DNA of 64,000 nucleotides from a virus (Duplodnaviria > Caudoviricetes). The notes beneath the pieces were generated by a model. The model searched no databases. It worked only from the letters and a program-made list of their open reading frames with translations, and had not been told where the DNA came from. A program made the position numbers and the translations under genes. Below are positions 6,037 through 59,190 of this stretch, piece after piece. The stretch spans positions 1 through 64,000 of the IMG/VR virus record IMGVR_UViG_3300024284_000007; one strand, 5' to 3'. How positions within the stretch are numbered: position 1 is the first letter of the stretch; the number at the start of each line of letters is the position of its first letter.

Positions 6037-6480
6037 TCAGGTCACGTACTCGCGCCAGGGGATGAACTTCCCCTCCTGCCAGAATCCCCAGCCGCTCCTG
6101 CGGGGACCGGTAAGGACCAGGGTCCACAGAGGGTCAGGGCTGATGCCGGTGATCATGTGCGCAGCTTCCCTGCCCAGTCTCGCGAGGCACCAGCGCTGGT
6201 GATAGCGCAGCTCATGTTCCGCCGGGTTCTTCTTGTCCGGGAAGACCTTCTCCGTATACCCCCCCGCCACCACGAGGGAGATGAATGCCCATGGATGGTC
6301 ATGCGGGTCCCGGTCGCGGTCCTCCCGGTGGATATGGTGCAGGTATACCCCGAACAGCGGGGTCTGGATAATGCGCAGCCGGTCCAGATAGGGGTCCCTG
6401 CCTGCCCCTATGTCCTCTCCTTGCAGGAATGCCCACGGCTTCCGGTCCCCGGGTTTCCCGTCCTGGGTCTTCTCGGTCAT
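6037..6480 (-). CDS. Cupin-fold phage protein
   Basis: LHHIHREDRDRDPHDHPW..ISLVVAGGYTE...H.I...WTLVLTGPR. Confidence 0.65.
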   Translation of the reverse strand: MTEKTQDGKPGDRKPWAFLQGEDIGAGRDPYLDRLRIIQTPLFGVYLHHIHREDRDRDPHDHPWAFISLVVAGGYTEKVFPDKKNPAEHELRYHQRWCLARLGREAAHMITGISPDPLWTLVLTGPRRSGWGFWQEGKFIPWREYVT

Positions 6481-8489
6481 CGCGGCACCTCGCAGACATC
6501 ATTGGCGCAATACATCTCACCCTCCGCCTCGGGGAGATCGGGGCTGCCGTAGAGGGCATCCCAGTCGATGGGCTTCACATTCTCCCGCAGCTTGGTCCAG
6601 GTGTCACGGCTGACACGCTGATACGGGGCTTGTTCGTAGGTTCCCTCCGCCATCGGGAGAAAGGAGATGGACTTGAGCTGACCGTCGTAGGCACGGAGGA
6701 TGGCAGGGATCTCCTTCGCCTCATCTTCAGAGAAAGTCACCGTACAGCTAACGGAGTTATCGCTCCAGAATTTTTGAGCCTGAGCCGCCAGCGCAACCTT
6801 TTCCCAGGCGCTTACCTGATGCTCAGCCCTCATTTCAGGTCCCTCGACCGGAAGATAGATGACGACGGTACTGTCCGGATCCGAGACACTCGGCTCGATC
6901 TTGTAACCGGCATCTTCCATGGCTTTCGCGAACGGGGAATCCTTCATCTCTCGGATTGTGCGAACATAGTAACCAGACTCGCGAGGCCAGTGCACGCCGG
7001 GAGTGACTCCCCACAGGAGGGAGACGGTACCGCTCGGCTTTACCGTGGAGACCCGGATGCTCTCTCTCACGCCCAGCCACTCGCTGTAAACTTTGTCCCA
7101 CTTACGGATCTCCTTGTATCCGGCATCCTGCCAGCGCCGGAGTTCCGCCCAGCCGTGAGACTCGGCAAACTGGGACACTCCGGTCATTGAAACGCCGATT
7201 CTCCGGTTGCGGGTCATGACCTCGTTCGACTCGCCCCACTGAACAGGGAGCAGGGTCACGGATTTTGAAAACAGAAATGCAAATTTGAGAACGCGGAGAT
7301 AATCCTGCAAACTATCGCACCTAGTCGGGAATGTCTCTACCAGATTGCATTTCTCGAAACTTTCCAGTGGGATTTCCCCGCAAGGATTTGATCCCATTGT
7401 CCGGTATTCTTTATGATCCGGCGGGTCGGCAAGCCGTCCGTAATCCCTGACGATATCCAGCCAGAAGATACCAGGCTCTCCATTGAGAATGATTCGCGGA
7501 ACAAGGTGAGAATAATCCCCGCCGCTTTGCGCGATTACCGAATTATTTGACAAATGCCCGTAACCATCAAGGCCATTCCTGACGGGATTCTTCCGGTAAT
7601 CCTTGAGATCCAGGAAGTCTTCATCGTCGGGAAGTCCCAGGGCGATTTCTGCGCTCCTCCTGACATTAGCGCTGACGACGCATTTTCCGAGCATATTATT
7701 CACATCCACGATATCGGTAGACGTGAGGACCTGCCCTCCTCGCTTTCCGAGGAGAGCTATGAGCTGAGCATGCACCTTCACCAGCGGAGCGGGACCGCTG
7801 GCGACGCCTCCGAATCCGTGTATCGGGGAACCGGCAGGGCGCACCTTGCTGTAATCGAAGACGGGAAGCCTGCGATTAGGGAGAAGGAATGCCCGGAGCA
7901 GGTTCGCTACTGATTCCGCCCAGCCTTCCCTACTGTCCGCGATCAGGTGAGGAACGCAGCCCTCCGGTTCGTGCAGAGTGAGCTTACCTGCTCCGAGAGT
8001 ATCGAATCCGACTCCGATTCCCAGCATGCTCTCAGTCATCAGCCGGGCGAAAGGCAGACTCGGATCATCCATGCCTGCAATCTGCGACGTGGAAATAAAC
8101 GAGCAGTTGTAGAGCGCACTTCCGTCGCGCTTTCCATTGACCATTTCCGTACCGCACATCCAGAGACCGCGACCTGGCGGTGACCACTTCCCGGCGAACG
8201 CCAGGGTATAAGCCTCCTGCGCGGAAGCCTGTGCGATGTCGTTACTCCAGGGCAGGCGGTTGTGTATGGCGTGATCGTACTGGATGCTGTAGAAACCCTC
8301 CGTCACCCGGCGGAGTCCTTCGTAAAACCTCTCGCGAGTTCCATCTTCCTTGCGCCTGGCATATTTGCTAACCCAGCTCTGCTCGCCCAGGCTGTTGCCT
8401 GCCCCGATCGGGAACCCCCAGTCGGGACGCTTGTCACGATACTGATTGACGAATTCATCCTGAAGACGGAAACTAAGCCATCCTGTCAC
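6477..8489 (-). CDS. nrdJ: Class II (AdoCbl-dependent) ribonucleoside-triphosphate reductase
   Basis: WSPPGRGLW, NCSF, NVRRSAEI, GSNPCGEIPL..KCNLVE, TVKPSGTVS, C-terminal CANDVC; GTG start after AAGGAG RBS. Confidence 0.93.
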   Translation of the reverse strand: MTGWLSFRLQDEFVNQYRDKRPDWGFPIGAGNSLGEQSWVSKYARRKEDGTRERFYEGLRRVTEGFYSIQYDHAIHNRLPWSNDIAQASAQEAYTLAFAGKWSPPGRGLWMCGTEMVNGKRDGSALYNCSFISTSQIAGMDDPSLPFARLMTESMLGIGVGFDTLGAGKLTLHEPEGCVPHLIADSREGWAESVANLLRAFLLPNRRLPVFDYSKVRPAGSPIHGFGGVASGPAPLVKVHAQLIALLGKRGGQVLTSTDIVDVNNMLGKCVVSANVRRSAEIALGLPDDEDFLDLKDYRKNPVRNGLDGYGHLSNNSVIAQSGGDYSHLVPRIILNGEPGIFWLDIVRDYGRLADPPDHKEYRTMGSNPCGEIPLESFEKCNLVETFPTRCDSLQDYLRVLKFAFLFSKSVTLLPVQWGESNEVMTRNRRIGVSMTGVSQFAESHGWAELRRWQDAGYKEIRKWDKVYSEWLGVRESIRVSTVKPSGTVSLLWGVTPGVHWPRESGYYVRTIREMKDSPFAKAMEDAGYKIEPSVSDPDSTVVIYLPVEGPEMRAEHQVSAWEKVALAAQAQKFWSDNSVSCTVTFSEDEAKEIPAILRAYDGQLKSISFLPMAEGTYEQAPYQRVSRDTWTKLRENVKPIDWDALYGSPDLPEAEGEMYCANDVCEVPR

Positions 8490-9024
8490 AGTACTCCTTG
8501 CGAGCATTGATGAGATTGAAAGCAAATGCCAGCAGATCATCGCCTGACATGTCGCCTTTACGGAGATTGCATTGCATGCAGATAACCCAGATGTTATCTA
8601 TGGTGTAACCCAGAGAAGGATCCCATTTATCCAGGGAGGGACTATCCATTCTCTGCTTTCCGTCACCGCTTATCATCTGGCAACCGCAGACGGGGCAGCT
8701 TTCGGGAATAAGGATATCTTCTTTGGTGATTGAAAAAGGAAGAGACTGCTTCCTGGCCCGGTCACGAGAGTTATAGAACATTGAAACTTCAAGGTGCCTC
8801 TTCAGCCATGCACTGCGAGTAGCTTTCGCCTTCTCGGTTTTCTTGTGCAGCCTCTCGGCGGCGCGTCTGCATTCATTGCACCATGGATGAAAGCCATCTG
8901 CTCTTTTCTTGTCACGACCAAAGGCGTCAATAGGTTTGCCCTCAGGGAACTTATCCTTGCAACGACTGCATATCTTCAGTCCCGTGACAGGGTTAAAATG
9001 CCCTTCACCTCTCTTGTTTTTCAT
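8473..9024 (-). CDS. Free-standing HNH-type (homing) endonuclease abutting nrdJ
   Basis: CSRC/WCNEC, CPVCG, PSLDK.DPSLGYT.DNIWVICMQCN.RKG; lower GC than flanks. Confidence 0.8.
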   Translation of the reverse strand: MKNKRGEGHFNPVTGLKICSRCKDKFPEGKPIDAFGRDKKRADGFHPWCNECRRAAERLHKKTEKAKATRSAWLKRHLEVSMFYNSRDRARKQSLPFSITKEDILIPESCPVCGCQMISGDGKQRMDSPSLDKWDPSLGYTIDNIWVICMQCNLRKGDMSGDDLLAFAFNLINARKEYCDRMA

Positions 9025-10888: not shown

Positions 10889-11767
10889 CTAAGAACCTCC
10901 GCCAGCATCCCCATCTGCCTGAGCAGTGCTATCGCTGCCGGGAAAGGAAAGCTCATTGCTCCTACGGAGAAGGTACTTCTCCAGGATCATCTTCTCCCGG
11001 GTCAGCTTGCCTTCTTTGTTCTCCGGGACGGAAATCTGCGTCTTGAGGAACCCCATCTCCCCGGCGAGCTTCCAGGTACTGCGGAGCTTCTCGACGGTAT
11101 CGACGTCAAAGGCATCCTGCGCGAGGACCTGGACGGTGATCTCCGCGCTCTCGCGAGGCTCCTCCTTCTTCGTGGCGGGCTTCCTCGGGACAACCCTGAC
11201 CGGCTCGGGAGCGAACTCGGGCTCGTTCTCCTCTTCCACCTTGATCACGTCGTCGGTGTCGGCGGGCTGGTCGTTGCCGACCAGGGTCCACCTGACGATG
11301 GCATCCATCGAGCCCTTGTTGTACAGGCTCAGCCCGAACTGGTCGCCGAGGTTAATCGCCGCCCGTCGCAGGGCGTAGGTCTCGGAGTTGGTGACGGCGT
11401 TGCCGTGGGCATCCCCCTGGACGGGGTGAGTGGACTCCCCGACGTGGGAGCCATCGTGGAAGCACAGGTGAGATCCGTCAGGGCTGCGCACGGTGAGCCG
11501 CACGGTGGAGCGGTACAGGACGTAGTAAGCGTCGCTGCCGCCCTTGGTCTTGACCTGCCGCTCGCAGAGGAGGTCCTGGCGGAGCAGCTCCTGGTCCCAC
11601 CTGCCGAACCCGAAGACGCGGTTCAGCTCCGCCCGGATGTCATGCCCGGCGACGTACGCCATGTTCTTGAGGCTGAGCACTCTTTGCGGGTGAATGGGCT
11701 TGAGGAGAAGGGCGACCTGCTCGGCGGAAAGGTAATTCCGGGCAGCGTCATCGACAATATACGCCAT
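10889..11767 (-). CDS. Rad52/Rad22-family (Sak) ssDNA-annealing protein
   Basis: YVAGHDIRAELNRVFGFGRW, AVTNSETYALRRAAINLGDQFGLSLY. Confidence 0.85.
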   Translation of the reverse strand: MAYIVDDAARNYLSAEQVALLLKPIHPQRVLSLKNMAYVAGHDIRAELNRVFGFGRWDQELLRQDLLCERQVKTKGGSDAYYVLYRSTVRLTVRSPDGSHLCFHDGSHVGESTHPVQGDAHGNAVTNSETYALRRAAINLGDQFGLSLYNKGSMDAIVRWTLVGNDQPADTDDVIKVEEENEPEFAPEPVRVVPRKPATKKEEPRESAEITVQVLAQDAFDVDTVEKLRSTWKLAGEMGFLKTQISVPENKEGKLTREKMILEKYLLRRSNELSFPGSDSTAQADGDAGGGS

Positions 11768-12793: not shown

Positions 12794-13417
12794 TTGGACA
12801 GCAACGTGACACTGCCCCCGATCCCCCCGGACATGGAGCATCATCAGCTCTCCGAGGCTGATTTCTGGGGGAAACTCCTGGCAGAAGCAGATACCGATAA
12901 CGGGCGCAATCCCCGGTGGGCAGAACTTCAGCTCTACGCCATCATCGACACCAATCCCGCGCATGCTTCCTACGGGAAGCAGATGTGGCTGCTCTATACC
13001 ACCGGGCATTCCCTGGTCTACCATGCCCTCGACGGCTGCGGGCTGGGCATCATGGCGAAAGGGGAGGAGTTTCCCTATCTCACCATCGAGAGCGTCGATG
13101 ACCTGGTTCCGTGCCCCGACTGCCATCCGGGAACCTGGGAGGAGAGCCGGGAGTACAGCCTGGAGGTAGCCCGGCACACCTCGATCCCCTGCCAGGGCGC
13201 GGGGAAAGTGATCCGCTCCTTGTGCCGCGAGCCCCGCTGCGAGACCTGCAAGCACTTCTCCCACGCGGACCGCGAATGCGGGCGCTGCGGCTGCGGCGAT
13301 TACGTCGCGGAGCAGCCCACCCTGTCCGGTCCGGGCAGGCAGCTGGTGGAGAAAGCACGTCGTCTCGATCCTGAGATCGACAGGGCGGCAACGGAGATGC
13401 TGGTCAGGAGGTTCTGA
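12794..13417 (+). CDS. Hypothetical protein with several CxxC motifs
   Basis: First gene of the rightward operon, coupled to the next gene. Confidence 0.65.
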   Translation: MDSNVTLPPIPPDMEHHQLSEADFWGKLLAEADTDNGRNPRWAELQLYAIIDTNPAHASYGKQMWLLYTTGHSLVYHALDGCGLGIMAKGEEFPYLTIESVDDLVPCPDCHPGTWEESREYSLEVARHTSIPCQGAGKVIRSLCREPRCETCKHFSHADRECGRCGCGDYVAEQPTLSGPGRQLVEKARRLDPEIDRAATEMLVRRF

Positions 13418-14163
13418 TGGGAAACGTCCCGAACATCCTCCTGCGCGGGATCACCGGCTCGGTTGCCTACGGGCTGAACACCCCGGAATCTGACGTGGAC
13501 CGGCAGGGGGTCTTCGCGGTGCCCACGGAGAAACTGCTGGGGCTGCACCCTCCCGCGCAGACCATCGACGGGCATGACCCGGACATCACCTGCCACGACG
13601 CGGGCAAGTTCCTGTCCCTCGCACTCAAGGCGAATCCCACGATCCTGGAGCTGCTGTGGCTCCCGGAAGACCTCTACGAGATCAGGACCCCCCTCGGAGA
13701 TAAGCTCATCGGGATCAGGCAGTGCTTCCTGTCCCGCAAGATGGTCCGCAACGCCTATCTGGGCTACGCGACCCAGCAGTTCAAGCGCCTGGAAAGCCGT
13801 GGCGACGGGACGTTCTCCTCTGATCTCCGCAAGCGCACGGCAAAGCATGCCCGTCATCTCGCCCGGCTGCTGACCCAGGGATGGCAGCTGTATTCCACGG
13901 GGACTTTCTCCGTCCGCCTGGATGACCCGGAGTGGTACCGCCAGTTCGGGGAGGATGTGGCTGCCGGAGACCTCACCCGCGCGAGGGCGCTGATCGCAAG
14001 TACTGAGAACAGCATGGACATGACCACTTCCCCGCTCCCGGAGAAGCCCCATGAGGAGCAGGCGGAAGAATGGCTGAGGAAGGTACGGCAGGTTTACTAT
14101 CATCCCGTCTGCGGCAGATGCGGCACTGCGGGATGCCTCGAAGACAAGGCGCTGGACTGGTGA
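13417..14163 (+). CDS. RlaP/YcgL-type DNA polymerase-beta-superfamily nucleotidyltransferase
   Basis: GSVAYGLNTPESDVDRQGVF, KANPTILELLW, KHARHLARLL. Confidence 0.85.
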   Translation: MGNVPNILLRGITGSVAYGLNTPESDVDRQGVFAVPTEKLLGLHPPAQTIDGHDPDITCHDAGKFLSLALKANPTILELLWLPEDLYEIRTPLGDKLIGIRQCFLSRKMVRNAYLGYATQQFKRLESRGDGTFSSDLRKRTAKHARHLARLLTQGWQLYSTGTFSVRLDDPEWYRQFGEDVAAGDLTRARALIASTENSMDMTTSPLPEKPHEEQAEEWLRKVRQVYYHPVCGRCGTAGCLEDKALDW

Positions 14164-19779: not shown

Positions 19780-19917
19780 ATGATGATAGGGCATGTCTAC
19801 ATCAATGTCGTCTATGTCTGGGAAGCCTTTGCCATCGTGGCTGGGATACCTGCGGGGGTACTCCTCTACGCCATCAGGCGCAAGCGCCGGAAGCAGATCG
19901 GCGATTTATCATGGTGA
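19780..19917 (+). CDS. Single-TM microprotein with in-frame TTA two codons before the stop
   Basis: MMIGHVYINVVYVWEAFAIVAGIPAGVLLYAIRRKRRKQIGD-L(TTA)-SW*. Confidence 0.55.
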   Translation: MMIGHVYINVVYVWEAFAIVAGIPAGVLLYAIRRKRRKQIGDLSW

Positions 19918-23308: not shown

Positions 23309-23704
23309 GTGGATAACGTCAAGCAGGTCATCGTCATCAGGAGAGACCTGAAAATGCGCAGGGGCAAGGAGATTGCCCAGGGTGCTCACGCTTCGATCGC
23401 CTGGCTGACTAACAGGATCACGAATTCTTCCAATGCTCTCATGTCGGTTACGCCAGCGGATTTCTCTGCAGCGGAATGGGAATGGCTTCGGGGGAATTTC
23501 CGCAAGATCTGCTGCGTTGTCAGTTCCGAGCAGGAGCTGCTCGACCTGTGTGATGCAGCGAAGGAAGCGGATCTGATCTATGAGCTGATCGAGGACTCTG
23601 GACTGACTGAGTTCAGCGGGGTTCCCACGTTCACCGCAGCGGCATTCGGTCCTGACTTCGATGAGAACCTGGATCCCATTACGGGTCATCTGGTACTCTA
23701 CTGA
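23309..23704 (+). CDS. pth2: Peptidyl-tRNA hydrolase, Pth2 family
   Basis: KQVIVIRRDLKMRRGKEIAQGAHAS...KIC.VV...L...I.DSGLTEF..PT.TA.AFGP...D.ITGHL.LY. Confidence 0.92.
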   Translation: MDNVKQVIVIRRDLKMRRGKEIAQGAHASIAWLTNRITNSSNALMSVTPADFSAAEWEWLRGNFRKICCVVSSEQELLDLCDAAKEADLIYELIEDSGLTEFSGVPTFTAAAFGPDFDENLDPITGHLVLY

Positions 23705-23793
23705 CATGCTCCAAGAAGAAGTCGGCAGGGCGTCGCTGGCGTGACCCTGCTAGTCCGGGCGGATAATAAGTCCTGGGGTAGAGCGCCAGCAAT

Positions 23794-23877
23794 GGAGAGT
23801 GAACGAGCCAGGGTGCTCGGCCTTCCTGCTAAGAAGTGCGCGGGTGATACCGTGGATTTCGAGTATCCCGCTCTCCT
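23794..23877 (+). tRNA. tRNA-Ser(GCT)
   Basis: GGAGAGT/GCTCTCC, loop CTGCTAA, long variable arm. Confidence 0.75.
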
Positions 23878-23878
23878 C

Positions 23879-24223
23879 ATGGCTAAGGAACTCGCGTTCT
23901 CGGTAACCCGCAAGGACCTGAAGATCGAGACTTTTTCTGCGGGCGGACCGGGAGGACAGCATCAGAACACCTCCAACACGGCGGTGCGCATCACGCACCT
24001 CGCGTCAGGGGCGTCAGGAGTGGCGAGAGACTCCCGCAGCCAGCATCAGAACATGAAGAACGCCCTGCGCCGCATGGCGGAATCGGGTAAGTTCAGGGTG
24101 TGGGTGAACCGGCAGCTGCTGGGGAATACCGAGCCGCCGGAGATTGCTGTACAGCGGCAGATGCACCCCTCGAACCTGCTGATCATGGGCAGGGAGGAGG
24201 GGAGATGGAAGATCATCGACTAG
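23879..24223 (+). CDS. Class I release-factor GGQ-domain protein (ArfB/PrfH-like, domain 3 only)
   Basis: IETFSAGGPGGQHQNTSNTAVRITHLASG...DSRSQHQN. Confidence 0.88.
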   Translation: MAKELAFSVTRKDLKIETFSAGGPGGQHQNTSNTAVRITHLASGASGVARDSRSQHQNMKNALRRMAESGKFRVWVNRQLLGNTEPPEIAVQRQMHPSNLLIMGREEGRWKIID

Positions 24224-29221: not shown

Positions 29222-29818
29222 ATGAACTATACCGCAGAGCAGATGCGAGAGTACCAGAACCGGAGGCGTGAAGCTCTTCGCGCCGAATTGCGCCTGTTGC
29301 TCGGCGGGAAATGTGCTCGTTGTGGCAAGACTGAGGATCTTGAATTTGATCATATAGATCCAAAAACAAAACTTTTCTCGATAGCAAATGGACTGGATAA
29401 GCCGCGTGCTGTTCTTTTGCAAGAAGTGGAAAAATGCCAGCTTCTTTGCACGCCTCACCATATCGAGAAAAACTCCGAAGATGGAACACGTGTCCGAGGA
29501 GAACGACAGTGGAAAGCAAAGCTCACTGTTGCCGATGTCCAGAGTATCAGGGCATCAACTCTTCATTATCGCGAACTGATGAAAATTTATGATATTACCA
29601 AGGCTCATGTATTCGCTATTCGCAGACGTGCGGCTTGGAAGCATGTAGACTTATCCTTGCCAGGGTACTCAAGCGGCCAACGAGATCTGACTGTAAATCA
29701 GATGGCATCGTCCTTCCTAGGTTCGACTCCTAGTCCTGGTACATGTATAACACAGCAAATAAATACGAATTCCCCAATAACACCGAAGTCTGGACCTATG
29801 AGATCATTGCCTATATGA
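29222..29818 (+). CDS. HNH endonuclease (paralog 3); domain ends at WKHVD, then TTA (29651-29653), and the ORF runs on through tRNA-Tyr
   Basis: LGGKCARCG...LEFDHIDP...EVEKCQLLC..HH, AKLTVADV..IR...WKHV. Confidence 0.85.
   Translation: MNYTAEQMREYQNRRREALRAELRLLLGGKCARCGKTEDLEFDHIDPKTKLFSIANGLDKPRAVLLQEVEKCQLLCTPHHIEKNSEDGTRVRGERQWKAKLTVADVQSIRASTLHYRELMKIYDITKAHVFAIRRRAAWKHVDLSLPGYSSGQRDLTVNQMASSFLGSTPSPGTCITQQINTNSPITPKSGPMRSLPI
29659..29741 (+). tRNA. tRNA-Tyr(GTA)
   Basis: TCTGA-CTGTAAA-TCAGA, variable arm. Confidence 0.92.
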
Positions 29819-46745: not shown

Positions 46746-47246
46746 TCAGGGGTCGTACTTGCGGAACTCGTCCCGTCCCGCATCAGCGAGAGAGCCGTCA
46801 TCGACGGCTTCCTGCGTGGTCGGGCTGAGATAAGGGTGCGCGGGGATCTCCAGGACGTCGTGGAACCAGCCCTTGCGCGGGGAGCCGCTGTCCTTCCAGT
46901 GCAGCTTGTCCCTGTTCAGGGCGCTGACCACGCAGCCGAATTCGGTGACGCGGGAGTAATCGGAGTCGTTGCCGACCCAGGCGAACGCCCGGAGCCCCCC
47001 CCGCGAGGCGGGGATCCAGTACATGGCGTCGGCGAGCTTCCCGGTGGACATCGCGGGCGGCTCTCCCGGGCGGGCGCGGTGCCATGCGCCGGACGGTTTC
47101 TTCGTCCGGCGCAGGGTCACCCGCTGCGCCCGCTGCGCGATGTGCTTCGCCAGGGCGGTGGCAGCTGGCGCAGCTCCCTGGGCGGAGAGCTTGGCGACTT
47201 CCTGCCAGAGCCTGATGTTCTCCTCGAACGAGATCTCGCCGCTCAC
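46746..47246 (-). CDS. HK97 gp10-like tail-completion protein
   Basis: PGEPPA..TGKLADA, Y.RVTEFG, HPYLSP motifs. Confidence 0.6.
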   Translation of the reverse strand: MSGEISFEENIRLWQEVAKLSAQGAAPAATALAKHIAQRAQRVTLRRTKKPSGAWHRARPGEPPAMSTGKLADAMYWIPASRGGLRAFAWVGNDSDYSRVTEFGCVVSALNRDKLHWKDSGSPRKGWFHDVLEIPAHPYLSPTTQEAVDDGSLADAGRDEFRKYDP

Positions 47247-48385
47247 ATCCTGCGCGCCTCCATGCGCTTCAGCAGTTCGCTGACTGCGGGCTTCATGTAT
47301 TTCTCTGAGACGTTCTCCACGGAATACTCCCCGGCGAACTCACGGAGCCTGGCGTGATCGACCTGGTTACGGTCCTGGTATGCTTTCTCGTAGGCGATGG
47401 CGATCTCGGTAACTGACGGTTTCACCCACCATCCTTTGTGGACGCCGTTCCAGAACGGCTCGCCATTGACCTCGGTGCCTAGCGGGTTCAGCTCGCTCAT
47501 CGAGGACGCGGCGGTAGTGATGACCGGGGTCCCGCAAGCCTGCGCCTCCATGATGGGAATCCCGAAACCCTCCCCGAATGCGCAGGCGGAAAGGACATCC
47601 AGCATGCCGTACCATTCCGCGAGTTCCTCCGGGCGGATCAGCCCTGCCGCGTAGCGGTACTGGTCCACCGTCCTCACCAGGTGGGTGATGCCCAGGGACT
47701 CGGCGAGAGCCTCCAGGTCCTGCCCGCCATCGGTGTGCACTCCCGAATGCAGTGCCAGCAGGGCATCCGGGTGGCTCTTCGCGAATCTCGCGAATGCCAG
47801 CATCTGCTCGGGCAGGCCTTTCCTGATCGCGTCGTTGTTGGCACCGTTGATGCCCACCACGAAAGCGTCCGGGTCCACGCCCATCATCTCGCGCAGTTCC
47901 TTCTTGCCTTCCGGGAGGGCAAAGACGTCCAGGTCGATCCCGTGCGGGACGTAGACCGGATCGAAGCCTGCCGCGCGGAACCGGTCGTAGCCGAACCGGG
48001 ACATCGCGATCAGCTGGGCTCCGGAAGCCTCCACGTTCACCCGGTCCGCCGTGGACATCGGGCGGCAGTCCGCCGGGAGCCAGTGCGCTAGCGGCAGTTC
48101 CGAAAGAAGATTCGGGTCGAGGACCCATACGTCACCCAGGGTGATCACCAGGTCAGGACTGGTCATCTTGCAGTGCTGGTGCAGTGACGTCGTGCAGTAA
48201 TTGCTCCCGAAGCCGGGCAGGACGGGCATCCCGTTCCACTGGGTCGGGGATCCGGACAGCCCCCAGTAGGAGCTGATGATCACCTCGTGCCCCATCCTGA
48301 GCAGTTCCTGTGTCCAGACGGCAGTCTGGGTGCCGTAGCCGGACGGTGCCCAGGGGGCACAGGAATGCCAGACGATCTTCGCCAC
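47243..48385 (-). CDS. Glycosyltransferase, GT4 (GT-B)
   Basis: SGYGTQT, EGFGIPIMEAQACGTPVIT. Confidence 0.9.
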   Translation of the reverse strand: MAKIVWHSCAPWAPSGYGTQTAVWTQELLRMGHEVIISSYWGLSGSPTQWNGMPVLPGFGSNYCTTSLHQHCKMTSPDLVITLGDVWVLDPNLLSELPLAHWLPADCRPMSTADRVNVEASGAQLIAMSRFGYDRFRAAGFDPVYVPHGIDLDVFALPEGKKELREMMGVDPDAFVVGINGANNDAIRKGLPEQMLAFARFAKSHPDALLALHSGVHTDGGQDLEALAESLGITHLVRTVDQYRYAAGLIRPEELAEWYGMLDVLSACAFGEGFGIPIMEAQACGTPVITTAASSMSELNPLGTEVNGEPFWNGVHKGWWVKPSVTEIAIAYEKAYQDRNQVDHARLREFAGEYSVENVSEKYMKPAVSELLKRMEARRM

Positions 48386-52483: not shown

Positions 52484-52870
52484 TTAGCTTTTTTCCAGGT
52501 ATGCAGCAAGAGCCCGCAACCTGTCCGGATCGTCGTGAGCCCATCCCAGAAGCCTATTGCAGGTATTGCACAAGATGCCCCTGACGCAGTTCTCACATCC
52601 AAATCTTCCAGGGCAGCAAGAATGATCATGGTCCACGCAGAGCTTTTCAAAAGAACCGCAGACTTGACAGCCTTGCGACGCTGCGTACCCACGCCAGTAG
52701 GCTCTGGTCTTACCGGCGTGGGTTCTCGCATTATCGTGAGGGCGCGTAGCTTCAAGGTAAATCTCATGCGCAGCGCAGCATTCTTCGCATCGGCAGCCAC
52801 GCTTCTTGTATGTAGCGTTCTTGCCGTGACTCCAGACGCCGTTTTTGCAGCCTTCCCGGTGATTGCTCAT
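52484..52870 (-). CDS. Endonuclease VII family (free-standing)
   Basis: CQVCG...LCVDHDH.CC...C..CVRGILC..CNRLLG..DD. Confidence 0.88.
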   Translation of the reverse strand: MSNHREGCKNGVWSHGKNATYKKRGCRCEECCAAHEIYLEATRPHDNARTHAGKTRAYWRGYAASQGCQVCGSFEKLCVDHDHSCCPGRFGCENCVRGILCNTCNRLLGWAHDDPDRLRALAAYLEKS

Positions 52871-54347: not shown

Positions 54348-54629
54348 CTATGTGCTGATGATGTAGCTGACGGTCGCGGTCTGCCCGTTCTGGGTGACGC
54401 AGAAATTCAGCCCGCCGCCCTTGGAGATCGCAGTGGTCACGAACGACGTGGGAAGCGCATTAGGCGTCAGCAGGAACCCCGTGGAGGAGGTGACTCCCGT
54501 GGCGGGTCCTACCGCCACGGTCGCGGGACCGATGTTCGCCAGGACGATGCTGCACAGTCCGGCAGGGACGGTGCACAGAGCTGTGGGGACAGTGTTGTCA
54601 TAGGACAGCTGCCCGGTGATGATGCTCAT
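54348..54629 (-). CDS. Small beta-rich virion-type paralog A
   Basis: GQ...PT.LCTVP.G...NIG..V.VG...VTSSTGF. Confidence 0.7.
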   Translation of the reverse strand: MSIITGQLSYDNTVPTALCTVPAGLCSIVLANIGPATVAVGPATGVTSSTGFLLTPNALPTSFVTTAISKGGGLNFCVTQNGQTATVSYIIST

Positions 54630-55207
54630 CAGTTCCCGGTAGAGATAATGAAGCAGAATGACGATGCGGTGCCGTTGCCGGTCGTGGCGTAGTACGTAGC
54701 CCCGCCGACCGAGTTGTAGGCTTCCTGGCTGAGCGGGGTCACCGGGACCGGCATGCCGCTCGCGGCGGTGACCCTCGCCGATGTCCCGAGGTAGACCGCC
54801 TGGGGGGTGGTCGGCTGGTAGAGGGTGAAGTTGCTCAGCCCGGCGGGGAGGATGAATACAGTAACCGTGCTGTTAGCAGGCACCGTTGCCGTTCCCATGA
54901 TCACGGACATGATTTTTCTCTGTAACGCCGTAGCAACATAAGTAACTGTCGTACTATTGCCCGTAGCTGCAATGGCATACAGGTCCTGTCCGGGATGCAG
55001 GTGCACCTGAAATCCGTAAGGAGTAATAGTGCTATACGGATTCCCCTGGAAGAACCCCGTTGATGATGTGACGCCGGAGTCACCAAAATAGATTGCACAT
55101 TGCGCGTACAGTGCACTTACTGTAACTTCGGTGATGTGTTCAGAATCTGCGGCGACAATCAAGGCAGGAGCAGAATCCGTTATACTTACCTGACCATAAG
55201 AAAACAT
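54629..55207 (-). CDS. Two small paralogs (B 54629..54910; C ends at TTA 54923-54925) joined in one ORF
   Basis: Each half aligns with paralogs A and D; TTA sits where paralog A has its stop; own ATG at 54910. Confidence 0.7.
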   Translation of the reverse strand: MFSYGQVSITDSAPALIVAADSEHITEVTVSALYAQCAIYFGDSGVTSSTGFFQGNPYSTITPYGFQVHLHPGQDLYAIAATGNSTTVTYVATALQRKIMSVIMGTATVPANSTVTVFILPAGLSNFTLYQPTTPQAVYLGTSARVTAASGMPVPVTPLSQEAYNSVGGATYYATTGNGTASSFCFIISTGN

Positions 55208-55213
55208 GATCCC

Positions 55214-55501
55214 TCACTGATCAGTGACGATGATGTAATTAACGAGTCCAGTGGTTCCGGATGTATTTGCCCCGTAAAGCGTAGCTCCTCGGGAGGAGAC
55301 ATAGCTTGAAAAGCTTGTGGGAATCGAGTGGCATTGCAATCCGTTCAGCCCGGTCACCGCTGTACTCGTCCCGACTGATACGACATTCGTAGCAGAAGTT
55401 GACGAGTTCCAGAACGTGGCATTGCACAACCCGGGAGGAACAGTGAAGAGAGCGATCGTGGATGCGTTCGGCACCGTGATCTGCCCCATGACGTAGGTCA
55501 T
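55214..55501 (-). CDS. Small beta-rich virion-type paralog D
   Basis: GQITVP...LFTVPPG...V.VGTST.VT. Confidence 0.7.
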   Translation of the reverse strand: MTYVMGQITVPNASTIALFTVPPGLCNATFWNSSTSATNVVSVGTSTAVTGLNGLQCHSIPTSFSSYVSSRGATLYGANTSGTTGLVNYIIVTDQ

Positions 55502-55516
55502 CTCAGCTTACTCCTT

Positions 55517-56224
55517 TTATACTTTCTCCAGGATCCACTGGACGTCAGGATTGAATTCCTGCCGGACGCGGGAAACGGTATTCGACAGATGCATCGCGCG
55601 CCATTCCCGGTAGGCGGTGAGATCGGAGCTGCCGCTGGACTCCTCAGCTTCGGCGTAGGTGACGTCACGCTCGGTACCGGGGGTGACGGTGTAGTGCAGG
55701 TGCTCGATGACCGCCTCGGGGACGTACCGGATCAGGTCAGTGCGCTTGCCGATCTCGCTGATGGCGTTGTCGCAGTAGAAGTGCCTGACTGCGGAGAGCG
55801 CGAACCAGCCGAGGAACCTCACGAGGTCGCTGGAGACCGCCCAGATCTCCGGGAAGCCGCTGCGGCGCTTGTCGTCGGGGTAGACCCACCCCGTGCCGCC
55901 CAGGTCTTCCAGGGCGTCCATGAGCGCCTTGTCCCATTGCGGGGTGGTGAACAGGTGATCGTCCCCGACTGTCATGATGGCATCGAAGTCATCAGCATGC
56001 TCCAGCGCGACCCGGTTGAAGATGCCGGTCAGGCAGTCCCTCGGGGAGAGCACCGCGTGCACGGCGGGACCCCAGTCCATATCCTCGTAGGAATCGTCGT
56101 CGTCGTCGGTGATGAACATCAGGACGGTCTCGTCGGCGGGGTCGCTGTCCGCGAAGGACTTGATCAGCCGGGCTGCCTGCTCCCGGCGGTTGCGGGTGGG
56201 AACCATTACCAGGAGGCTCTTCAT
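55517..56224 (-). CDS. Glycosyltransferase, GT2/GT-A
   Basis: VMVPTRNR, TVGDDH DxD-type motif, F.CDN, IEHLH. Confidence 0.82.
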   Translation of the reverse strand: MKSLLVMVPTRNRREQAARLIKSFADSDPADETVLMFITDDDDDSYEDMDWGPAVHAVLSPRDCLTGIFNRVALEHADDFDAIMTVGDDHLFTTPQWDKALMDALEDLGGTGWVYPDDKRRSGFPEIWAVSSDLVRFLGWFALSAVRHFYCDNAISEIGKRTDLIRYVPEAVIEHLHYTVTPGTERDVTYAEAEESSGSSDLTAYREWRAMHLSNTVSRVRQEFNPDVQWILEKV

Positions 56225-56583
56225 GCATCCCTCTCGATCAGCGGCACGGGAAGCCGCACGGTGTCGGATTCGTAGGCTTCGCCGCTTCGCGGGCCTTTCG
56301 TGAAGACCAGGACCCTGGTATCTTCCAGTGCCCGCCAGGCGTGCGGGATGCCCGCAGGCTCCTTCACCAGCTCTCCGGGACCATGAACGTCCTCATGGAG
56401 CCCGTCATCGGCGACACTGGCGAACAGCATCTTCCCGCTGACGACATACGCCCACTGGACGGTGTTGTGATGAACGTGATTACCCCGGACGGCTCCGGCT
56501 TTCGTGAAGATCTCGGTAACGGCATCGATCTCGCCCAGGAGGTCCTGGATGACGCCGCGCTCATCCTCGAATCGGTCAGTCAA
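56221..56583 (-). CDS. Cupin-fold NDP-sugar isomerase/epimerase (WxcM/FdtA-like)
   Basis: FEDERG.I, RGNHVH...Q..YV.SG, IPHA. Confidence 0.75.
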   Translation of the reverse strand: MTDRFEDERGVIQDLLGEIDAVTEIFTKAGAVRGNHVHHNTVQWAYVVSGKMLFASVADDGLHEDVHGPGELVKEPAGIPHAWRALEDTRVLVFTKGPRSGEAYESDTVRLPVPLIERDA

Positions 56584-57700
56584 CGATCCTCGCTTCAGGA
56601 AGGGGGATGATGAACTTGCCTTCGTAGCCTTTTTCGCGGAGCTTCGGGATCAGGTCATCCGCGATATGCCAGGACAGCAGGAGGGCGTACTGGGGCTGAT
56701 CCTCGAAAAGCTTCTTCTCGTCAACGACCGGGATATCCGTGCCGGGAATGCATGTCCCGATCTTCTCGCTGGAAGAGACTTCGCAGACATATTCCAGGAA
56801 GCCCGCGATATCTGCGTAATTAATCAGCGGGGTAGCGCGGGTGGTTGCCCCGATACCGCAGATGCTCCAGCCGTCCCGCCATAGCGGCTGCATCAGGTCG
56901 AACAGGGCATTGCGGGCTTTCCAGGCACGGGAAGCCAGTTTTCCCTGTTCCTTCACTGCCCAGATGCGGAAAGATCCGCCGTGAGTGGGGATCTTCTCGA
57001 TGTCCTCGATGATCAGCCCATGAAAGGCGAGCAGGCGGGACAGGGAGGCTACCGAGTAATAGCGGAGGTGCTCATGGTAGACGGTATCGATCTGCAGCCC
57101 GTTCGCAATGGATGCCCAGTCGTGGTTCTCGGTGACGAAAACGCCGTCGTCGGCAAGCAGGGTCAGCACTCCGGCAAGGAAGTCATGCGGGTCCGGGACG
57201 TGTGCCAGGACATTCGCCGCAGCGATGACTTTCGCCTTGCCATTGTCCCGGCGGATGACCTTCGCGATCTCGGAGGTGAAGAATTCCTGGTACGTGGCGG
57301 TAATGCCCTTACTCAGGCACTTACCCACCTGATTGGTAGGCTCGACGGCTACCGTGGTAAGTGACTTCACCGGGAGCAGTGACAGGAAAGTGCCGTCATT
57401 AGCCCCGATATCCACGACGAGATCATTCATGCACAGCCACGGCTTGACCTTTTCTGCCAGCTCGGCGAAGTGCTCTCGCATCGCCCTGGTATTGCCGGTG
57501 GCGTAAGGGTGATCCTCCGGGAACATGTCGCGCTGATCCGGGATGTAGCTCAGCTGGACCAGCGTGCAGTTCTCGCACTTGAGCAGCTTCAGCGGGTATC
57601 TCTGCCCGTTATCATGCTCCGCGAGAGGCTGCATGCCCATGTCGAGAACGGGAGCCATGTCCCTCTCCCCGCAGGAGCCGCAGCGGAGGATCTCAGCCAT
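56576..57700 (-). CDS. NDP-sugar C-methyltransferase (NovU/TylCIII-like)
   Basis: Zn-binding CGSCG/CENC, VDIGANDG, YHEHLRYYS, GIGA...T.LINY, LLLSWH. Confidence 0.88.
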   Translation of the reverse strand: MAEILRCGSCGERDMAPVLDMGMQPLAEHDNGQRYPLKLLKCENCTLVQLSYIPDQRDMFPEDHPYATGNTRAMREHFAELAEKVKPWLCMNDLVVDIGANDGTFLSLLPVKSLTTVAVEPTNQVGKCLSKGITATYQEFFTSEIAKVIRRDNGKAKVIAAANVLAHVPDPHDFLAGVLTLLADDGVFVTENHDWASIANGLQIDTVYHEHLRYYSVASLSRLLAFHGLIIEDIEKIPTHGGSFRIWAVKEQGKLASRAWKARNALFDLMQPLWRDGWSICGIGATTRATPLINYADIAGFLEYVCEVSSSEKIGTCIPGTDIPVVDEKKLFEDQPQYALLLSWHIADDLIPKLREKGYEGKFIIPLPEARIVD

Positions 57701-58661
57701 TCGCGCGATACCACGATCCGGTGCGGGTGACGCCTTCCTCGAAAGTCACCTTAGGACCGGTCCAGCCCAGCGCGGTGATCTTCGAGATGTCCGGGCACCT
57801 TCTCGGCGGGCTTCCCTGCGGGAGTTTCCCGGGAATGACCTTGATTTCCCGGTCGTAACACCACCAGGCTACCTCGCGGGCTACTCCGGAAATGGTGCGC
57901 TCTTCCAGCGTGCCCATGTGGTAGACGTTCATGTGCTCACCCGCGTCAAGCAGGATGATGAACTGGTCTACGCAGTCATCGATATAGCAGAAGCTGCGGG
58001 TTTCCTCCCCGGAGCCCTGGATCGGGAAGGGAATGGCTCCCTCATGATCCTGGACCAGGGAGTTCATCCGGATGCAGAATTCCGGGATGACGTGTTCCCT
58101 GCCCATGTCGGGACCGTAGATGTTATGCGGTCTCGTGATGATAAGCCTGTCGAGAATGCCTGTTCTCGCCCAGGCGAGGGACATGATCTCGCAGGCGATC
58201 TTCCCTCCGCCGTAGGAATAGCGGGGGTTGAGGACATCCGGAACTACGAGCGGGATGTCTTCCGGCGTGGGCACTTGCGGTGCCACCTGGTACGCCTCCG
58301 AGGAGGAAACCAGGAGGAGTTCGCTGCACCCCGTCGCCTCGCAGGAGGCAAGGACATTAAGCATCCCCCGCATCGCCACGTCGAGCACCTGCCGGGGCTC
58401 GGCGTAGAAGGTCTGCGTTCCCTGGAGATAAGCCAAATGCACGACGGAATCGCATCCGTGCATCGCGGCACGGACATTCTTCTCGTCGCGGATATCACCC
58501 TGGAAGATAGTGCACGGAACGCCCTTGAGGCGGTCCGCCTGCCCTCTGGACATGTCATCGAGGACATTGACCTCGCTCCCGAGGGAAACGAGCTTCTTCA
58601 CGAGATTGCTCCCGATGAAACCCGCTCCCCCGGTCACGAGATATTTCCTGCCGTTTCCCAT
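57693..58661 (-). CDS. NAD-dependent NDP-sugar epimerase/dehydratase (extended SDR)
   Basis: VTGGAGFIGS, SSSEAY, YGGGK (YxxxK), NIYGP, RSFCYIDD, RRCPD. Confidence 0.9.
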   Translation of the reverse strand: MGNGRKYLVTGGAGFIGSNLVKKLVSLGSEVNVLDDMSRGQADRLKGVPCTIFQGDIRDEKNVRAAMHGCDSVVHLAYLQGTQTFYAEPRQVLDVAMRGMLNVLASCEATGCSELLLVSSSEAYQVAPQVPTPEDIPLVVPDVLNPRYSYGGGKIACEIMSLAWARTGILDRLIITRPHNIYGPDMGREHVIPEFCIRMNSLVQDHEGAIPFPIQGSGEETRSFCYIDDCVDQFIILLDAGEHMNVYHMGTLEERTISGVAREVAWWCYDREIKVIPGKLPQGSPPRRCPDISKITALGWTGPKVTFEEGVTRTGSWYRANG

Positions 58662-58680
58662 GAGGAAATGGTAGCAGAAA

Positions 58681-59190
58681 CTAAACCACGCCTGCGGTAA
58701 CCCGCAGGGAGCCCTGCTGCACGACGGCAGTGGAAACGGTAACGCTCGCCGCGTGGTCATACAGCAATCCGGTGGAGACGGTGACAGCAGTCGCGGTAGT
58801 GCCCGCGACGACCGCCAGTTCCTGTCCCTTGCCGGTATTGCCGATGATCAGCGTGGTCCCGGCTGGCATTCCCGAGGTGGTGCCCAGGGTAAAGGAAGTG
58901 GCGCCAGCGGAGAGGGCTACTGCGGTCAGGGTATTGCTGACCGTTCCCGGGACAACGTTAGAGCACGCGTAAAGGGTGCTCGCGGCGTTCTGGAATTCAA
59001 CCGGGCGATTGCCCGGGTAAATCGGGAACCCGTTATATGGCGAGACGTTGCTCTGTCCCACCCAGACGACGTTAGAGCCCAGGTTGAAGAAGCGCACCGT
59101 AGACGGCGCGTTCGGCGTCGGGGTGAAAACCCAGTTGGGGATCGTAGTGGGGTTGACCACCTGATCGACCCCTGCACCGAGGTTAGGCAT
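58681..59190 (-). CDS. Beta-rich virion-type protein related to the small paralogs
   Basis: FNLGSNVVWVG...NGFPI motif, Thr-rich. Confidence 0.6.
   Translation of the reverse strand: MPNLGAGVDQVVNPTTIPNWVFTPTPNAPSTVRFFNLGSNVVWVGQSNVSPYNGFPIYPGNRPVEFQNAASTLYACSNVVPGTVSNTLTAVALSAGATSFTLGTTSGMPAGTTLIIGNTGKGQELAVVAGTTATAVTVSTGLLYDHAASVTVSTAVVQQGSLRVTAGVV

Follow-up and report, generated by a model that had tools for sequence, protein, structure and literature searches.

The window analyzed here covers the initial 64 kb of an IMG/VR virus record of 87,379 bp from an uncultured soil phage, a linear sequence of 61.5% GC for which CheckV gives a completeness estimate of ~71%. A total of 35 tRNA genes are found in the 87 kb, 34 of which lie at 19.5-30.5 kb and one outside the window. 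Genes of the early region include a B12-dependent ribonucleotide reductase (6477-8540), a Rad52-family annealase (10889-11767) and an RlaP-type nucleotidyltransferase (13417-14163). The only hints to the host are a DUF1707 domain of actinobacterial type and the matches of an HNH endonuclease gene to phages of Streptomyces and Mycobacterium; a 660-aa, a 456-aa and an endolysin-like protein used as queries gave no useful matches among cultured phages.

The locus considered here is a minus-strand late operon carrying four tandem paralogs of ~94 aa, designated D, C, B and A. The operon encodes, in order, an NDP-sugar epimerase/dehydratase, a C-methyltransferase, a cupin, a GT2-like glycosyltransferase, the four paralogs, a zinc-ribbon protein and a SAP-domain protein. 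The features of the tandem array are as follows.

55214..55501, minus strand: unit D, 95 aa, stop codon TGA, first of the tandem paralogs, with the strong SD sequence AAGGAG
54926..55207, minus strand: unit C, 94 codons, with its own SD sequence GAGGGA 6 nt past the D stop
54923..54925, minus strand: TTA codon, codon 95 of the fused ORF (TAA on the plus strand)
54911..54922, minus strand: spacer CAG AGA AAA ATC, 12 nt, A/T-rich, in frame and stop-free
54629..54910, minus strand: unit B, 93 aa, with a TGA stop that overlaps the ATG of A (TGATG)
54348..54629, minus strand: unit A, 93 aa, the final tandem paralog
54629..55207, minus strand: the C-linker-B ORF, 192 codons under table 11 and 192 aa in the ORF list

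The minus-strand sequence across the junction reads ...GCT ACG GCG TTA CAG AGA AAA ATC ATG TCC..., such that the ATG of B occupies 54908-54910 and the conceptual C-B product contains LQRKI as its inter-domain linker. The original prediction placed this TTA at the aligned stop position of paralog A, and both a four-way alignment of the units and a 28-sequence family alignment bear this out, since the A stop shares a column with the TTA; in the family alignment, B and D extend two residues past that column (GN and DQ, respectively). Reading the sequence and the ORF list likewise returned the predicted B start 12 nt past the TTA with correct coordinates, and the TTA is, as had been claimed, the sole such codon in the 192-codon ORF. 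Comparison of the D|C junction, CAGTGAGGGATCATG (55205-55219), with the C|B junction, CAGAGAAAAATCATG (54908-54922), on the minus strand shows identity at 11 of 15 positions, with the TGA of the former facing AGA and the GGG of its SD sequence facing AAA. This likeness may reflect a putative duplication of an inter-unit junction.

C and B are each predicted to fold as an independent domain. Because MAFFT aligned all homologs to the B part of the fused protein, C was folded alone, and the resulting AF2 model (pLDDT 89.1) describes a complete domain of 94 residues, with its final strand finishing at residue 93. The AlphaFold model of B alone (pLDDT 86.6) has the same strand order as C, and the predicted models give the unit fold as a small eight-stranded jelly-roll. 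Searches of Pfam and PHROG with the units returned no family, and Atlas matches were to unnamed viral clusters only, while comparison against BFVD gave TM scores of 0.7-0.8 to many uncharacterised Caudovirales proteins of 85-95 aa. The best PDB matches by Z score were a GOLD domain (8.8), an Ena pilin (8.4) and the PM2 spike (7.8), values that fall within the range expected of a common arrangement; phage cement proteins matched weakly. A virion-type assignment of the units is plausible from their position beside virion and glycosylation genes. A sugar-modification cassette (SDR epimerase/dehydratase, C-methyltransferase, cupin and GT2-like) and a GT1 gene are found among the late genes on the minus strand (47243-48385 and 55517-58760), and it is speculation that the Ser/Thr-rich units serve as substrates for glycosylation.

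What do related phages carry at the position of the TTA? An exhaustive HMMER search of 1.84 billion representative proteins with the fused protein as query identified 19 relatives. The C-types P0014, P0018, P0019 (95 aa) and P0025 (103 aa) cover query residues 1-94, and the B-types (89-95 aa) all start at query residue 100, which is the ATG of B. The standalone C ortholog P0008, which is encoded on an 18,349-bp metagenomic contig, is 94 aa long, aligns at 73% identity without gaps, and ends ...ATA-stop exactly at the TTA codon; P0014 (92 aa) and P0018 (91 aa) end in the same way at the same codon. Given these orthologs and the model of C, C is a complete domain that ends at the TTA position in every relative seen. 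No fused C-B relative was found in the HMMER search of 1.84 billion representatives or in an indexed word search of 5.8 billion clusters, and a tblastn search of cultured phages with the fused protein gave no match. Three longer candidates were considered as tandem fusions and rejected. P0012 is a contig-end fragment, whereas P0013 (305 aa) and P0015 (312 aa) are single units of B type. In the latter two proteins, an inserted Ser/Thr/Ala-rich domain of ~210 aa splits the jelly-roll into its N- and C-terminal halves, and the family therefore accepts large insertions.

The locus thus shows the features of a stop-loss fusion: the upstream orthologs are standalone, the start of the downstream gene is conserved, the in-frame spacer is free of stops, and the codon in question is one substitution away from a stop. 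TTA can be reached from either TAA or TGA by a single transversion, and one of these two would have been the ancestral codon. Codon usage gives any one codon a chance of <1e-3 of being TTA, as compared to ~1/7 if a stop codon has been substituted once to a sense codon, and for this reason the coincidence of a TTA with a stop position is far beyond chance. We conclude that the TTA very probably descends from the stop codon of C via one substitution.

The origin of C itself can be traced by comparison of loci. D-B-A without C is the arrangement in all five complete loci of relatives, which come from IMG/VR and from soil and rhizosphere metagenomes of JGI (L001/L009, L002/L010, L003, L005 and L006). 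Their D|B junctions are TAATG, TAA-GTG or TAATCATG, and L012, a relative at greater distance, carries only one unit (L012:691-963). The unit copy number between the GT2-like and zinc-ribbon genes is therefore 1, 3 or 4. Scans of IMG/VR, JGI metagenomes and GTDB genomes recovered no further C-bearing loci. Relative to the D-B-A loci, the phage carries a net insertion of 304 nt (window 54911-55215) between the CAGT of D and the ATG of B. The composition of C (GC 0.49, GC3 0.44) differs from the phage GC3 of ~0.8 and from the phage-typical GC3 of B (0.85). The GC3 of D drops from 0.94 to ~0.5 past codon ~17 (55217-55453), and the low-GC3 tract ends at the C|B junction. D is 86-92% identical to the D units of L001-L006, and its third positions are A/T-biased; its dS against the relatives is 1.3-1.6, compared to 0.6-0.9 for the glycosyltransferase, B and A. 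Purifying selection is strong on D, B and A, with dN/dS values of 0.04-0.23 (0.04-0.10 for D and 0.14-0.23 for B). The drop in GC3 within D and a dS about twice that of the neighboring genes indicate a recombinant patch that includes C, and by these compositional signals C and most of D look like a ~550-nt patch from a lower-GC relative, with the TTA at its right edge.

The codon that now occupies the former stop position is one that the phage avoids. A crude gene set of 112 ORFs and 22,277 codons contains at most eight in-frame TTAs, most of which upon inspection fall in spurious ORFs of the tRNA array or upstream of true starts. The nine lowest-GC genes, which include 6477-8540, 29222-29650, 52484-52870 and 54926-55501, comprise 1,476 codons with GC3 of 0.43-0.72 and contain no internal TTA, versus ~10 expected from position-specific composition; AAA and GAA are freely used in the same nine genes. 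Because the deficit is seen in low-GC genes, the avoidance is selective and not compositional. TTA and CTA are both missing from the 126 Leu codons of the AT-richest genes, and in the relatives no in-frame TTA occurs in ~13,600 codons of syntenic regions, gene ends included. Five in-frame TTAs sit in believable genes, namely the one at the C|B junction (54925), one at 29651 in the HNH endonuclease gene, which is treated further on, and the three listed below; for the gene at 2034, no relatives were retrieved in which the codon could be compared.

2034, minus strand: TTA lying 8 nt upstream of the next ATG, with its own stop three codons on
19906, plus strand: TTA lying 2 nt upstream of the next ATG, with its own stop two codons on
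52198, minus strand: TTA in a believable gene

No tRNA-Leu(UAA) is found among the 35 phage tRNAs in 87 kb, and the only Leu anticodons are CAA, GAG and CAG; since the record is ~71% complete, the remaining ~44 kb could contain such a tRNA gene. That TTA has been selectively purged suggests that UUA is costly to decode during infection. An in-frame TTA in a strongly TTA-avoiding genome is also one of two features of bldA/TTA-dependent control of the Streptomyces type, the other being a host with a single, developmentally limited tRNA-Leu(UAA) on which expression depends.

A second TTA at a stop position is found in the HNH endonuclease gene.

29222-29818, plus strand: HNH endonuclease ORF, in which codon 144 (29651-29653) is TTA

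The ORF matches Streptomyces phage HNH genes through ...AAWKHV (residue 142), and the stop codon of gp247 of Streptomyces phage Emma1919 (144 aa) aligns with the TTA; a distant HNH homolog ends four residues past the AAWKHV motif. A tRNA-Tyr gene (29659-29742) starts 5 nt after the TTA with no canonical stop before it, and the frame past the TTA runs for 54 codons through the tRNA-Tyr gene. The relatives available for judging conservation of this TTA are ≤52% identical and lie in other contexts. If stop losses hit sense codons randomly, the chance of two stop positions holding TTA is ~1 in 50.

How would B be translated downstream of C? Pairing of the B upstream region to the anti-SD sequence is -2.9 kcal/mol, which is weaker than the median of random 20-mers (-3.8) and amounts to no usable SD sequence. 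B likewise lacks a usable SD in the relatives, where its ATG overlaps the D stop, and the combination of a missing SD with an ATG/stop overlap indicates that B is built for stop-start coupling. A stop at the TTA position leaves the B ATG 12 nt downstream, a workable reinitiation distance; with no stop, B is made only as a fusion, unless ribosomes are released at the UUA. RNA structure around the TTA is not unusual (fold z = -0.15) and was rejected as a signal on that basis. A -1 slippery site or transcriptional slippage at AGAAAAATC was also rejected, there being no X XXY YYZ heptamer and a run of only five A's. Two genes for candidate rescue factors are encoded within the tRNA array.

23309-23704, plus strand: PTH2 peptidyl-tRNA hydrolase, within the tRNA array
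23741-24223, plus strand: RF-1/GGQ-domain ArfB-like protein, 160 aa, adjoining PTH2 in the tRNA array

On balance, the explanation that we consider somewhat more probable than not is that the TTA is a former stop codon at the edge of the patch that may have been retained as a weak, tRNA-dependent terminator. This model begins with observations, namely the former stop position, the insertion, the patch, the TTA avoidance, the missing tRNA and the absence of an SD sequence before B, and would proceed as follows. C would have arrived with most of D in a low-GC patch bounded on the right by the C|B junction, and the ancestral C would have ended ...ATA-stop, followed by the 12-nt spacer and the SD-less ATG of B, which would have been translated by termination-reinitiation coupling. 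A single transversion to TTA, from either TAA or TGA, would then have abolished the stop of C, and because the 12-nt spacer contains no stop, the frame enters B to give a formal 192-aa C-LQRKI-B product. The change would have persisted because UUA would be near-undecodable in this phage-host pair. Ribosomes would pause at the UUA with complete C on the P-site tRNA, and some would be freed by drop-off or by rescue through PTH2 or the ArfB-like GGQ protein to yield free C. The remaining ribosomes would decode Leu via a host tRNA-Leu(UAA) to yield the fusion, such that the ratio of free C to fusion would track the supply of this tRNA. Two products may thus be made, and B may also be made free. 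The purge of TTA from gene interiors and its presence at two independent stop positions would both agree with the proposal that TTA is the sole stop-loss that selection tolerates, because translation still mostly ends there.

The role of UUA as a conditional terminator is plausible as a prediction from sequence, with circumstantial support from the avoidance of TTA, the lack of a tRNA-Leu(UAA), the SD-less start of B, the presence of PTH2 and the GGQ protein, and the TTA in the HNH gene. Conservation lends no support to the TTA, as the stop is normal in the one other phage seen to carry C. Moreover, the syntenic gene ends of relatives without TTA and the absence of any special RNA structure weigh against this explanation, and a recent mutation that is neutral or mildly harmful accounts for the sequence equally well. 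The fate of B also has no explanation if release at the UUA bars reinitiation.

An alternative hypothesis is a plain gene fusion, in which a host tRNA reads UUA adequately, C-B is the sole meaningful product, and the TTA has no role and will drift or vanish. We regard this as possible, if somewhat doubtful. The TTA event is a singleton that is not conserved, no RNA signal flanks the site, and ~2% of Streptomyces phage genes contain UUA (Antonov et al. 2023, PMC10732093). The plastic unit number (1, 3 or 4) and the domains inserted into the B-types P0013 and P0015 indicate that the family tolerates architectural change, which agrees with a fusion. However, TTA has been purged from all other gene interiors, AT-rich ones included, which argues that its decoding is costly; the TTA at the HNH stop position would be a 1-in-50 coincidence under random landing on sense codons; and no other fused form appears in very large databases.

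A more far-reaching possibility, which we consider unlikely, is that UUA acts throughout the genome as a dedicated recoding or termination signal and never as ordinary Leu, being a sense-codon leaky stop gated by a bldA-type host tRNA. If this were true, a scarce tRNA would result in free C, an HNH protein of normal length and perhaps reinitiation at B, with PTH2 or the ArfB-like factor freeing the peptide, and an abundant tRNA would result in the C-B tandem.

Recoding at a hungry UUA, either by a hop of peptidyl-tRNA-Ala to a downstream GCN or by a +1 shift, has a precedent in the large terminase of phage phiHau3 and two prophages (Streptomyces), for which UUA-led bypass is described as experimentally supported (Smith et al. 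2013, as cited in PMC10732093). Both cases are phages with a hungry UUA. As described there, phiHau3-type bypass restores a frame that is broken inside an essential conserved domain by means of matched take-off and landing codons, unlike C|B, where the frame is kept, there is no near landing codon and relatives encode the two sides as separate proteins. A +1 shift would read seven codons and stop at ATGTCCGTGA, at a TGA that overlaps B codons 3-4, restoring stop-start coupling. Nevertheless, the 15 nt past GCG keep the frame, which makes recoding unnecessary; the closest GCN lies 36 nt downstream, and landing there would delete the first strand of B; GCG is unable to re-pair at +1 (CGU); and neither a flanking structure nor a phiHau3-type upstream SD sequence is predicted. 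We therefore consider recoding highly improbable.

It is equally hard to credit that the lost stop is a TGA two codons further on, now AGA, with the TTA already a sense codon two codons ahead of it, like those at 19906 and 2034. Such a history would fit the 11/15 identity of the two junctions, in which AGA stands opposite TGA, and the two residues by which D- and B-type units run past the end column of C. On the other hand, three orthologs of C type, P0008 at 73% identity among them, stop right after ...ATA, more substitutions would be required, and the similarity of the junctions was noticed post hoc.

A sequencing or assembly error, with a true codon of TAA and separate C and B genes, is suggested by a sequence that is metagenome-derived, one base from TAA and matched by orthologs with a stop, yet it has very little likelihood because the exact 192-aa product is found on two contigs (the longest of 131,554 bp) and in JGI/IMG, Logan and ENA, three sources with differing assemblers and pipelines, because neither an exact standalone C nor an exact standalone B has any database record, and because a substitution at a non-homopolymer site is atypical of consensus errors. 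The original prediction had set error beside mutation of a TAA and conditional termination. Mutation is now the best supported of its options, with three standalone C orthologs that stop at this codon and no fused relative, and the comparison with homologous genes that it proposed turned up stops in place of ordinary Leu codons; its sequencing-error option has become unlikely, since the same product recurs on two contigs in three sources.

Returning to the reading of the TTA as a weak terminator, the C|B TTA would be a variant of known TTA-based translational effects, and the terminator role is what is predicted here. The closest comparisons come from adpA. For the UUA in the inter-domain linker of adpA, release by drop-off plus Pth or by frameshift-termination has been hypothesized but is unproven (PMC10732093). 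The phage TTA is similar in being a rare UUA in a short linker between independently folding parts in a TTA-poor, high-GC system. In contrast, the adpA linker UUA is conserved in 184 of 218 genes with a conserved element ~12 nt downstream, whereas the phage TTA is a singleton with no predicted downstream structure, and the phage TTA appears to have replaced a stop between C and B, which are normally separate genes.

The adpA upstream ORF offers a second comparison, and there a pause that occludes initiation at the main start has been hypothesized, also without proof (PMC10732093). The UUA of that ORF lies 5-6 nt before the main start, and the phage TTA lies 12 nt before the next cistron start; with a UUA only a few nucleotides upstream of a start, a paused ribosome would cover the initiation region of the next cistron. 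The TTAs at 19906 and 2034 resemble this arrangement more closely than does the C|B TTA. Furthermore, the stop of the adpA upstream ORF is located two codons past the UUA and overlaps the main start, whereas at C|B there is no stop and a fusion results.

More familiar translational and evolutionary events also bear comparison. In the Qbeta coat/A1 read-through, a leaky canonical stop is read by a near-cognate tRNA to give an extended virion protein. As in Qbeta, a weak terminator within one ORF at the C|B locus would yield mostly a short product and, to a lesser extent, a longer one; unlike in Qbeta, that terminator would be a sense codon, so that the logic is inverted. The locus resembles an ordinary stop-loss fusion in its separate orthologs, single substitution and in-frame, stop-free spacer, and it differs from one in that the replacing codon is excluded from gene interiors and that a second gene end (HNH) is the same.

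The adpA linker and the phiHau3 terminase are the known cases that bear on the behavior of ribosomes at UUA without a bldA-type tRNA in Streptomyces, and little direct evidence backs either. At C|B, an entire 10-kDa domain would distinguish the two outcomes, free C and the C-B fusion; the orthologs with their real stop supply a natural control, and the phage encodes its own candidate release factors. If the change is a mere recent stop-loss, the locus is a dated example of how a tandem paralog is gained by patch recombination and then fused.
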